Origin: Lingula anatina
Lineage: Eukaryota; Animalia; Brachiopoda
Reading direction: 5' to 3'
DNA: 64,000 bases
NCBI GenBank assembly: GCA_051362555.1
Contig: CM120643.1
Span: 15,102,644-15,166,643 of the forward strand
Positions 33,678-36,960 of this stretch are shown here, piece after piece (position 1 is the stretch's first letter; each line of letters begins with the position of its first letter). A program made the position numbers and the translations under genes. Below the pieces are notes generated by a model that was not told the DNA's origin, did no database searches, and saw only the letters and a list, made by a program, of their open reading frames with translations.

Positions 33678-36600
33678 TCAGCCAAATGTGTTTTCTCCGC
33701 TGTAAGCTACATAAAGGAAGCCATCCTCGTCTTTGTGTTCTTCATAGATACTTCCCATGGTGGCACTGAAAGAAACAAAAGATGTATTTTAGGAGATGTT
33801 TTAACATTCATTTGCTTAAAGTCATATGAAATGTTAAGGGGAAGGGGCGTGTGTTAATGTCCTCTTTACGCTTTTGAACAAAAAATTATGATGATCATTT
33901 TTTTAATTTTTCATCCTGTACTAGCTCTCTGAAGGGGATAGGGTGGGTCTCTGAAAAAATTACATACTCTTGGTAGACTTGTAAAAATGATAATAAAAAT
34001 AAATGACCCTAAAGCAAATATACGTGTATTACACTTGTAGTGTGTATTATCAAAACAACAAATACATGTTTCAGACCTTTACAATAATTATTAACTGCTG
34101 AGGACTGCTATAAGCACTCATCTTCAACTAATTGTAGGATACCAAAATTTCTCCATTTCATTCAACAAGGGAATTCTTAAACCACCCAACATAAATAACA
34201 TTTCTTATTATATATAAACTGGTTCAATAAAAAACAGTAAATATATGTGTTTGTACATAAAAAAAAAAATATATATATATATATATATAGGTAATGAAAA
34301 ATCAGATAAACTCAACAAAGATACACAGCACTTAATTAATATTTATGATCACCTTGTTGTTGGTAAAACTTTATTCACAAAAAGGAAGAGGTTCCTCTCG
34401 GGAGGAAGCTCAATCCTCTTCCTGATGATATACATAAACTGAGCCACTGAAAGGTCACTGGGGACAAGAAATTGCTCTTTGTCTATCTCTGGGATGTTGC
34501 TTCTTGGAGCCTTCTGAACCACAACCTGAAAAAAAAAAAAGGGTTTTTAAATCTTCCAGTACATTATTGCCTGTGGTTGATAATTTTTTTTTACATTAGA
34601 AGAATCATGGAGCAATTTTCACTCACTGTGCAGAAACATAAACAGTTATAAAGAGTGCCCACAAAAAGTTGGTCATTTACTGTACATAAAATATGTGCCA
34701 TTGTACAATAAATTGCCATTGTATTTTGTCTAAATATCAAAATGAAATGCCCTTGTAATTTTTAATGATTCCAAAACACTGATTTCCATCAATAAGGCCA
34801 AAGTCAAGAAAGTTCACTCACTGGAATTCTATCAGGATACTTGGAACGTATTTTATCCGACTCACATTTACGGGTTTCTGAAACAAAATATAATTTACAA
34901 TAATTCATCACTATTCACTTTTTTTTTCAATGCAGAACAATTTTACATGAAAACCATGTCTAATTGTATAATATCTGAATATTTCTGAATATTCTGCATG
35001 TCATTGTCAGGAAATCAAAATTTTTTCAAGGTTATTGTAACCCTTTACTATCATCCAAATGTACCGAAAATGAGCTTTTACCTGCATCTAATTATTCAGG
35101 AATGCATATATCTTTGTGCTGATTAATTTAAAACAATGAAAAAGCCCTCGAAAATATAAAATATCGGTGTTTATATTTTTTCATTGCAATCTATAAGCAT
35201 AGAAAACTCAAAGCTTTAATCATCAATTTAACACCTTTCTATTGAGGTGAGAGAGCAATCGGTATGGGGCATAACTTCATCCCTGAACAAGATTTTATCA
35301 TGAAATTTGGCAGAGTTGTCCATGAGATAAAAGACTACAATCCCCTGCCATCATTTTGGTTAAAATTTTTTTGTTATGGAGTTATGAGCCCCTCATTATA
35401 CATTTTCATTAAACAAGGGCATTATTTTTGAACGATAAAATCTGAACTAAGACAGGGTTTTGGAGTTCTAAATATTGTCATTAAATCAGCAATGAAACGG
35501 TGATGGTGGGAGTTCAGGTAAAAAAGAAATTTGAAAAACCAATTTTTCAGTTTTAACTTCAAAATCGTGATTATGACATCACCTGTGAGGAGGCATATGT
35601 GTAAATATTAATTAATTTAGTCACTGAACACTAAAGATTTATCTATAACCCAAAAGAATGTAAGGCAGTAAATAAGGAATTTTTGGGTGAAGGGTGACAA
35701 TATCCTTAAATTGCACACACTATTTTTCCCCTTTTTTATATGATTATGACATCACCTGTGAGGAGGCATATGTGTAAATATTAATTAATTTAGTCACTGA
35801 ACACTAAAGATTTATCTATAACCCAAAAGAATGTAAGGCAGTAAATAAGGAATTTTTGGGTGAAGGGTGACAATATCCTTAAATTGCACACACTATTTTT
35901 CCCCTTTTTTCTTGAGTAAGAAGAGTTATTCTAAAATCAAGCTTGTCATCAGAACTGTCATATTAACTTCAATCCAAAGACATAAAGAGGCGCATTTTCC
36001 AACTGATCTGTCTCAACCCCCCCCCCCCTTTTCATCTAAATTCAAAGTAAGTCCACCTTGTTCTTTTTTTTTTTTTTTTGTGTAATAATAGCTCGAGATT
36101 ATTATATTTAGAAAAAATTAGAAAAAAAATAATAAAAAAACAGGGACTAACTTTGAAATGGATTCATTAACCATTGGTAAGTATGTGAAAATTTTCCTTT
36201 ACCACAGAAAAATTCCTTTTTTGGCCAAAATGAACAGTTGTTATCCTTTTAAGTAAATACCCTGCAGCACTTAATTCTTTGTGCCATATTTTAGAGCACA
36301 GAAAAAATTATACATTTTGCATGTCACAATTGACCTTTAAAATGAATGATGGCTTCTGGGTGTGACAGAACCGTGAGAAATCATTATTCGGAATCTGCCC
36401 TGAATTTCTGATTACCAGCTCATATAAAATATACTGCAACAAAGATCATTTATATATATATATATATATATATATATATATATATATATATATATAAGGA
36501 AGAGAACACTATATATATATATATAGGCCCTAAAAATCTTCTAAATTAATTCTAGGTAAATTTTAAAAAGGTAAATCTTAAAAAGGTAATTCAGCGATTC

Positions 36601-36960
36601 TAATATTTCCTTAAAATTATAAGTAAAATTTAGCCATAACTGCTTTTAAAATAAATAAATAAATAAATAAATAAATAAATAAATAAATAAATAAATAAGT
36701 TTAAAATTCTGAACTCTGTGAAAAATTAATGATCTAGTACGTACAATGATACCAAAGCAAATAACCGACAAATCCTACAAATGAAATGTTTCAACAGAAA
36801 CTGTATTTTATTCATTTATTAGTTTATTACATGTACTCGCAAATCTTGTTAAACAAACAAGGGGGAATTCCCACCCCAAAGTTGACCTTTCCGTTTTAAA
36901 CAGGGTTTCCTTTTCAATTAACTTACCAAATGTGTTCTCTTCCTTAAACGTGAACTTCAT
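33678..36960 (-). CDS. GABARAPL2: GABARAPL2/ATG8 paralog, copy 2 (divergent LIR-docking site, 116 aa)
   Basis: Exons 36960-36927, 34877-34822, 34525-34353, 33765-33678; same sizes as copy 1, intact splice sites and ORF. Protein [116 protein letters not shown]. Confidence 0.93.
35030..35878. mobile_element. Kolobok-like (TTAA-target) non-autonomous element with a duplicated right end
   Basis: Left TCAA|GGTTATTGTAACCCTTTAC; right GTGAAGGGTGACAATATCC|TTAA at 35705 and again at 35878 via a 173-bp tandem duplication; absent from the paralogous intron of copy 1 (empty TTAA site near 29598). Confidence 0.7.

Follow-up and report, generated by a model that had tools for sequence, protein, structure and literature searches.

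The window analyzed here is a 64-kb stretch of DNA (64,000 nt of contig CM120643.1) from the brachiopod Lingula anatina, in which two four-exon genes of the ATG8 family lie in tandem on the minus strand: copy 1 (30835–25428) and copy 2 (36960–33678). Judged from its codons and transcripts, copy 2 is a genuine, transcribed ATG8 in which two hallmarks of the docking site for the LC3-interacting region (LIR) are absent, namely, the 8/47 residue pair and Lys48; the preferred reading places it in an old twin lineage of GABARAPL2 that has been overlooked. Both genes have a 351-nt coding sequence with GT..AG intron borders and encode 116 residues, the last of which, Gly116, directly precedes the stop codon (Table 1). 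They are identical at 314 of the 351 nucleotides (89%) and at 101 of the 116 residues; besides the 15 amino acid differences, 15 further codons differ silently, and the net charge is +4 in copy 1 and −1 in copy 2. An earlier, sequence-only reading of the locus had given these replacements, the codon changes it quoted and the 5-unit charge gap exactly, and it was right that the reading frame, the splice sites and the C-terminal glycine of copy 2 are intact. Exon 3 of copy 2 is a 100% match to the L. anatina RefSeq protein XP_013417087.1 ('autophagy-related protein 8'), and copy 1 is XP_013417177.1. The intron and 5′ blocks are 68–91% identical between the copies where they can be aligned, and the two 5′ flanks have ACGTCA and TCACGA/TCGTGA motifs in common. 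No third ATG8 copy was found within the window (the next-best tblastn match covers 17 amino acids, E = 0.19). In intron 1 of copy 2, positions 35568–35910 hold an exact 170-nt tandem duplication, which is either very recent or an assembly artefact.

Seven of the nine RNA runs (X1 and X4–X9) were mapped to the window. Splicing of copy 2 was seen in all seven, and all three of its introns were spliced in X1, X4 and X5. In these three runs, the junction reads from the last to the first intron were 17/3/3, 15/17/22 and 4/19/17 for copy 2, and 142/64/54, 54/51/39 and 60/42/47 for copy 1; at the last intron, X6–X9 gave 3, 7, 7 and 3 reads for copy 2 and 46, 98, 104 and 109 for copy 1. By the last-intron reads, the level of copy 2 is 3–28% of that of copy 1, a range in which the divergent runs may be undercounted. 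The paralog-specific RNA mapping that the sequence-only reading had proposed thus revealed a transcribed and spliced copy 2. The synonymous divergence between the copies (dS) is 0.27 and the nonsynonymous divergence (dN) is 0.077, with dN/dS of 0.28 (bootstrap 0.13–0.59): copy 2 is under purifying selection, and no excess of amino acid change was detected between the copies. With an intact frame, a spliced transcript and a dN/dS not near 1, copy 2 is not a young pseudogene, in agreement with the earlier view. That view had also treated the multi-nucleotide codon changes as noteworthy. Five codons carry two or more changes, which is no excess over point mutation (P 0.24–0.52), and such changes were rejected as a sign of selection; only the two codons altered at all three nucleotides are mildly unusual (P 0.006–0.036).

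The source animals of X7–X9 are more divergent from the window than those of the other runs. Among the best 40 of 201 rows, their copy 2 exon 3 shows L50M, E69D and K82Q together with four silent changes, and copy 1 shows at least three coding changes, all the listed ones silent; by exon 3, at least eight changes from the window were counted in copy 2 and at least two in copy 1 in these rows. Their copy 2 exon 2 starts with E12-F13 and aligns better to copy 1 (joint 29448–36927). The copy 2 divergence possibly reflects a cryptic lineage, a deep allele or a third paralogue. No read difference at codons 47/48 was found among the best 40 of the 201 rows of X7–X9, in which rows 4–6 bases away are present, or among the best 40 rows of X1, X4 and X5; the constancy of these codons across the Lingula samples is suggestive only. 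At position 30903, read ends pile up in four runs (X1 and X7–X9), just below the ACGTCA and TCACGA/TCGTGA motifs that copy 1 has in common with copy 2, and this position is likely the transcription start of copy 1.

Two types of GABARAPL2 were distinguished in an alignment of 120 of the 127 collected proteins, from which two exon fragments, two isoforms and three double-length proteins were omitted. The site profiles were based on 31 named W62 and 17 named Y62 proteins, with both Lingula copies, two plants, a frameshift-like Desmophyllum model and one Takifugu isoform left out. The W62 type (I55, W62, G/D81 and S87) includes human GABARAPL2 and occurs in cattle, fish, hagfish, amphioxus, echinoderms, hemichordates, molluscs, annelids, a nemertean and a bryozoan; in a tree without Lingula it forms a clade with a support of 89/97 (Shimodaira–Hasegawa-like approximate likelihood ratio test, SH-aLRT/bootstrap), which contains no named non-bilaterian. 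The Y62 type (L55, Y62, M76, N81, T87 and T90) comprises all 26 named proteins of sponges, ctenophores, placozoans and cnidarians, as well as 11 named bilaterian proteins. Among the 26 non-bilaterian proteins, L55 and Y62 are invariant, N81 occurs in 25 and T87 in 24. Because the Y62 type covers all the named non-bilaterian proteins, it is likely the ancestral metazoan state of GABARAPL2.

At sites 4, 55, 62, 81, 87 and 90, copy 1 carries the W-type residue and copy 2 carries the Y-type residue. Copy 2 has the L55, Y62, N81, T87 and T90 of the Y62-type set, lacks the W62-type I55, W62 and S87 and lies outside the W62 clade, while copy 1 has those three residues and lies inside it. The sequence-only reading had regarded copy 2 as drifting away from a canonical copy 1; at these five sites it is copy 2 that probably keeps the ancestral residue, and F95 is a peculiarity of copy 1 (all 48 other named proteins have Y95). 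The residues common to both copies are mixed, F3 and K15 being W-type and P72, T86 and S93 being Y-type, and both copies have L76, where 16 of the 17 named Y62 proteins have M76. Both also end at Gly116 followed by the stop codon, and hence neither needs priming by ATG4. Each of the 31 remaining named W62 proteins carries an extension, and the Y62 proteins of Tubulanus, Acanthaster and Lineus also end on glycine; in copy 1, this ending reads as a further Y-type trait. The best solved-structure match for copy 2 exon 3 was yeast Atg8, not GABARAPL2. Enrichment of the copy differences at diagnostic sites was not established (P 0.02–0.06 over all sites and 0.23–0.54 over variable sites); by these comparisons, the lineage signal lies in the direction of the differences, not in the choice of sites.

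Some sequences outside Lingula also mix or displace the two types. Among the hemichordate W62 proteins, that of Ptychodera (P0057) has the Y-type L55 and N81, and that of Saccoglossus (P0054) has T87, which may represent either an early-branching state or another case of conversion. Takifugu rubripes (XP_011608111.1; P0128) and T. flavidus carry a Y62-type GABARAPL2-like gene with the motif RREY and R17, which is 74–75% identical to cnidarian proteins versus 71–72% to vertebrate GABARAPL2 and may be a relic or a transfer. Among the 120 matches listed, no vertebrate Y62 protein other than that of Takifugu was found, and zgc:92606, a widespread fish gene considered as a possible vertebrate member, was dropped, as it did not appear in the papers searched and Takifugu was the only fish with Y62 among the listed matches.

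The fold of copy 2 is predicted to be normal: a ubiquitin-like core with two N-terminal helices (PF02991). An AlphaFold2 model from 126 sequences reached a predicted local distance difference test score (pLDDT) of 94.8, and Foldseek matched it to GATE-16 with a template modelling (TM) score of 0.97, a root-mean-square deviation of 1.1 Å and 65% identity; a first model from 24 sequences had a pLDDT of 62 because of its shallow alignment. The LIR pocket residues E17, I21, P30, F49, L50, V51, P52, F60, I63 and F104 are the same in both copies. The core of the ubiquitin-interacting motif (UIM) site, L76-F77-L78-F79, is also identical; the UIM site, which the sequence-only reading saw flanked by A75 and G81, is not remodelled. 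Two differences are found at the docking site. One is that the pair of acidic residue 8 and basic residue 47 is missing, E8 being combined with E47. Another is that Lys48 of the pocket HP1 is replaced by Q48. In GABARAPs, the basic residue at position 47 pairs with the acidic one at position 8 and both also touch LIRs, and LC3B T50E, equivalent to position 47, strongly lowers LIR binding and lipidation (PMC7615515). Excerpts from the same source report binding lowered or abolished by LC3B K51A, and an excerpt of PMC7262597 reports that K48Q of fly Atg8a, not K46Q or K47Q, significantly cut the binding of the Sequoia LIR. Positions 55 and 62 form the rim of the pocket HP2, where single changes had little effect (excerpt of PMC6499816). 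The docking-site change proposed in the sequence-only reading therefore stands insofar as R47E and K48Q fall on sites where the matching LC3B and Atg8a mutations cut LIR binding; it does not stand as to the acetylation sites, since K46 (LC3 K49) is kept and only one of the two lysines is changed. 'Acetyl mimic' also over-reads Q48, because relatives carry Q, D or E there.

These sites were compared among the 11 named bilaterian Y62 proteins. Residues 46–48 are KEQ in Lingula, KTD in Holothuria, KTQ in Tubulanus, KNE in Plakobranchus, KRQ in Lytechinus, KSK in Acanthaster, KEK in Patiria and RRE in Takifugu, and KRK in Owenia, Elysia and Lineus; position 47 or 48 is thus not basic in eight of the 11 proteins, and K48 is absent from six. 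Gly116 is missing in four (E in Holothuria, A in Owenia, A in Patiria and none in Elysia; P0005, P0056, P0060 and P0011, respectively), including two of the three KRK proteins, and these four are possibly natural non-lipidated ATG8s or gene-model errors. In all, 10 of the 11 carry a lesion at 47/48 or 116, a count that comes from searches started from copy 2 and proteins resembling it and that covers species that are not independent. Neither site is damaged in any of the 26 named non-bilaterian or the 31 named W62 proteins, and the basic 47/48 pair is kept in 119 of the 121 W62 sequences with these columns, isoforms included. A candidate clade of charge loss (Holothuria, Plakobranchus and Tubulanus; SH-aLRT 96, bootstrap 49–69) was rejected, since only Tubulanus and Plakobranchus remained together without columns 47, 48 and 69.

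The age of the pair was approached through the polarity of the differences, trees and linkage. With the group-defining site 62 excluded, the two copies have a polarity score of 44.2 (exact sign-flip P 0.005). For young duplicates simulated by sampling 14 changes from pooled site preferences, 0.22%, 0.52% and 0.14% of 5000 trials reached this score for three ancestors. In a tree with copy 1 alone, it nests in the lophotrochozoan W62 proteins beside Owenia (W clade 88/96), and in a tree with copy 2 alone, it is placed outside the W62 clade. A topology test of three arrangements rejected none of them (p of the approximately unbiased test 0.34, 0.46 and 0.62) because two sets of sites pull strongly in opposed directions: sites 55, 62, 81, 87 and 90 favor separation of the copies, while sites 13, 16, 40, 66, 72 and 93 favor their sisterhood. 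Judged from accessions and contig records, not DNA, Y62 and W62 genes appear to share one contig in four of the six species with both types; outside Lingula, these are the annelid Owenia (CAH1779708, Y; CAH1779711, W), the gastropod Elysia marginata (GFR85747, Y; GFR85744, W; a 360-kb contig) and the sea urchin Lytechinus pictus (XP_054748912, Y; XP_054748913, W). As this apparent linkage is seen in two protostomes and a deuterostome besides Lingula, the Y62/W62 pair likely predates the protostome–deuterostome split. An identity of 89% and yet opposite lineage markers would most simply be explained by gene conversion in both directions in Lingula, with selection holding the markers, and it is likely that such conversion disguises an old pair as a young one.

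The history that we regard as quite probable is as follows: one ancestral Y62 gene would have been duplicated in early bilaterians, and both daughters would likely have been kept in tandem; the W62 daughter would have retained the canonical docking site and the cargo work, and the Y62 daughter, released from that work, would have diverged per phylum and been lost in many lineages. The biochemical part is also probable. In copy 2, the HP1 and HP2 pockets and the UIM-site core would be retained, E47 would face E8 rather than pair with it, and Q48 would be unable to bridge the acidic residues of LIRs. Because E8 stands with E47 and Q48, and the pocket, UIM core and C terminus keep their residues, the prediction for copy 2 is weak binding of acidic LIR motifs; perhaps its lipidation is also less efficient. 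The membrane conjugation that the sequence-only reading ascribed to copy 2 is putative: LC3B T50E lowers lipidation too, and four of the 11 named bilaterian Y62 proteins have no Gly116. As to the role of copy 2, we lean slightly toward membrane or trafficking work that would need the fold, not strong LIR capture, and might proceed without lipidation, the receptor-dependent cargo being left to copy 1, by analogy with fly Atg8b. Taken as a whole, the reading that copy 2 is an expressed ATG8 of the old Y62 branch, in tandem with a W62 gene, likely converted in Lingula, with a predicted weak LIR docking and a likely receptor-poor role, is given a probability of roughly 0.58.

Copy 2 was compared with several known systems. 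Human GABARAPL2/GATE-16 (PDB 1EO6 and 4CO7) and the invertebrate W62 proteins share with it the fold, the pocket residues, F3/A108 and Gly116. The W62 type differs in having I55/W62/(G,D)81/S87 where copy 2 has L55/Y62/N81/T87, and in the basic 47/48 pair, which all 31 named W62 proteins keep and copy 2 lacks. The non-bilaterian GABARAPL2 proteins (Hydra, Nematostella, Amphimedon, Astrosclera Awi-GABARAPL2, Trichoplax and Mnemiopsis) have L55 and Y62 as copy 2 does; all 26, however, keep K-R/K-K at 46–48 and Gly116, whereas copy 2 has K-E-Q and E69. The LC3B T50E/K51 mutants and Drosophila Atg8a K48Q, which mimic phosphorylation or acetylation, involve the same positions, 47 and 48, and the same substituted residues (excerpts of PMC7615515 and PMC7262597). 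In copy 2, by contrast, these states are fixed in the genome, not switchable, and stand on a GABARAP-type scaffold with an acidic position 8, and other non-basic residues occur in its relatives. Drosophila Atg8b, which an excerpt of PMC7615515 presents as non-autophagic and independent of lipidation, would be a functional parallel, not a relative: it is described as a young, intronless, testis-biased retrocopy of the GABARAP type, whereas copy 2 has introns and is of the GABARAPL2 type.

Several points weigh against the old-lineage reading. Among real pairs with 10–25 differences, 5 of 182 W–W and 1 of 60 Y–Y pairs reach the same polarity score, in a profile that includes these pairs. With both copies in one tree, they group together (SH-aLRT 94) or drag the root of the W clade, and the bilaterian Y62 proteins form no supported clade over 113–116 columns. 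The tandem order outside Lingula was deduced from near-adjacent accessions and contig records, and in Tubulanus and Acanthaster the Y62 and W62 genes lie on separate contigs. At four of the six markers the two codons are a single base apart, a pattern that re-mutation following a recent duplication would also produce. Clustering of silent differences near the marker codons, the expected trace of selection opposing conversion, was not significant (P 0.13–0.30). As to the lesions, the seeding of the searches has been given above, and Lineus is the only named bilaterian Y62 protein intact at both 47/48 and 116. Many Y62 proteins without a species name have intact sites and could be bilaterian; those with named cluster-mates are mostly from cnidarians, ctenophores and sponges, with one nemertean. 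The Elysia model is visibly damaged, and the missing terminal glycines, which concern last exons, may be gene-model errors.

Lesions that differ per lineage, together with frequent gene loss, are also the pattern expected of decay, and slow decay is the strongest rival, although we consider it unlikely: the Y62 copy would be of old origin without a new job, weakly expressed and partly redundant, eroding under relaxed selection until lost. The low transcript level of copy 2, at least four amino acid changes in its X7–X9 version (F13, M50, D69 and Q82) as against the silent ones of copy 1, an oyster with just four Atg8 genes (excerpt of PMC12913940) and the restriction of vertebrate Y62 to Takifugu would all fit such erosion. 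It is opposed by the persistence of the gene in at least six phyla, its product sharing 85–102 of 116 residues with that of Nematostella (the damaged Elysia model aside), by the dN/dS, by the recurrence of changes at 47/48, 69 and 116 while the pockets persist, and by the markers held despite apparent conversion. A young tandem duplicate restricted to Lingula, the copies of which came to resemble the old types by convergent point mutation, would account for the nucleotide identity, the dS, the alignable intron and promoter blocks, the sister placement in the joint tree and the one-base marker codons; we judge it improbable, as the six markers are all correct in direction (TGG/TAT and GGA/AAT included; P 0.001–0.005 by simulation), the residues common to both copies are already a W/Y mosaic, and three further phyla show apparently linked W and Y pairs. 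A variant selected as a decoy for pathogen effectors that mimic LIRs, or to escape them, as the sequence-only reading had imagined, would agree with the charge loss at the docking site and with the faster divergence of copy 2 from one Lingula sample to another, L50M in HP1 included. It seems more improbable still, because amino acid change between the copies is not in excess, effector binding ought to be preserved in a decoy, and this reading does not predict that relatives lose Gly116.

On the reading of copy 2 as an old Y62-branch gene, a second GABARAPL2 line across several bilaterian phyla would be a fifth ATG8 subgroup, where an excerpt of PMC7615515 counts four in metazoans. A stronger version, put forward tentatively and in our view rather doubtful, is that this subgroup, a tandem twin of GABARAPL2 that mammals and many molluscs have lost, left canonical selective autophagy separately in at least six phyla and was kept for a distinct LIR-independent function, by hard-wiring the phospho- or acetyl-like states of LC3 or by dropping the lipidation glycine, with selection holding the markers against conversion. 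On either version, human GABARAPL2 would be a derived daughter, and the 'GABARAPL2' of cnidarians and sponges would resemble the twin that mammals appear to lack. Natural variants of the docking site and the glycine could serve as tools to find the ATG8 functions that depend on neither LIR capture nor lipidation, and the Lingula pair, with 101 of 116 residues identical, narrows the comparison to the few residues that matter; it would also illustrate how gene conversion makes an old pair look young. No description of two bilaterian GABARAPL2 lines, or of the Lingula pair, was found in the literature searched, which did not extend to figures, supplements and most subscription journals, so that an earlier mention is possible. 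In excerpts of PMC13020874, PMC4077880, PMC12913940, PMC7595595 and PMC6983715, GABARAPL2 is one group or is not discussed.

Table 1. Features of the two ATG8 genes, in window positions
Feature	Positions	Strand	Remark
Copy 2 (Y62 type) 5′ flank	36961..37189	−	two blocks 88–91% identical to copy 1 5′ flank
Copy 2 exon 1, codons 1–11	36927..36960	−	33 of 34 nt same as copy 1 exon 1; joint 34877–36927 in X1, X4, X5
Copy 2 exon 2, codons 12–30 (E12, D19)	34822..34877	−	splice joints in RNA
Copy 2 exon 3, codons 31–87 (LIR-docking strand, L55, Y62, E69, N75, N81, T87)	34353..34525	−	
Codons E47 and Q48, in place of the basic R47/K48 pair	34472..34477	−	
Copy 2 exon 4, codons 88–116 and stop (exposed terminal Gly116)	33678..33765	−	joint 33765–34353 in 7 of 7 mapped runs
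Candidate AATAAA polyadenylation signal of copy 2 (putative 3′ end)	33200..33205	−	
Copy 1 (W62 type) exon 1	30802..30835	−	spliced RNA
Copy 1 exon 2	29398..29453	−	spliced RNA
Copy 1 exon 3 (K46-R47-K48, I55, W62, G81, S87)	28554..28726	−	spliced RNA
Copy 1 exon 4 (S90, F95, Gly116-stop)	25428..25515	−	spliced RNA

Other features were found around the pair. A tRNA-His (GTG) gene lies at 37756–37827, between copy 2 and the next gene. On the plus strand at 38345–48028 lie an RS-rich open reading frame (ORF) and, farther along, a kinase exon, which we take to resemble a PRP4 kinase gene and which may serve as a synteny anchor. Downstream of copy 1, two GC-richer ORFs occur on the plus strand at 20950–22340, presumably with protein-kinase-like motifs. 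Tandem arrays with periods of 35 nt and 146 nt are located at 11352–12012 and 57131–58160, respectively.

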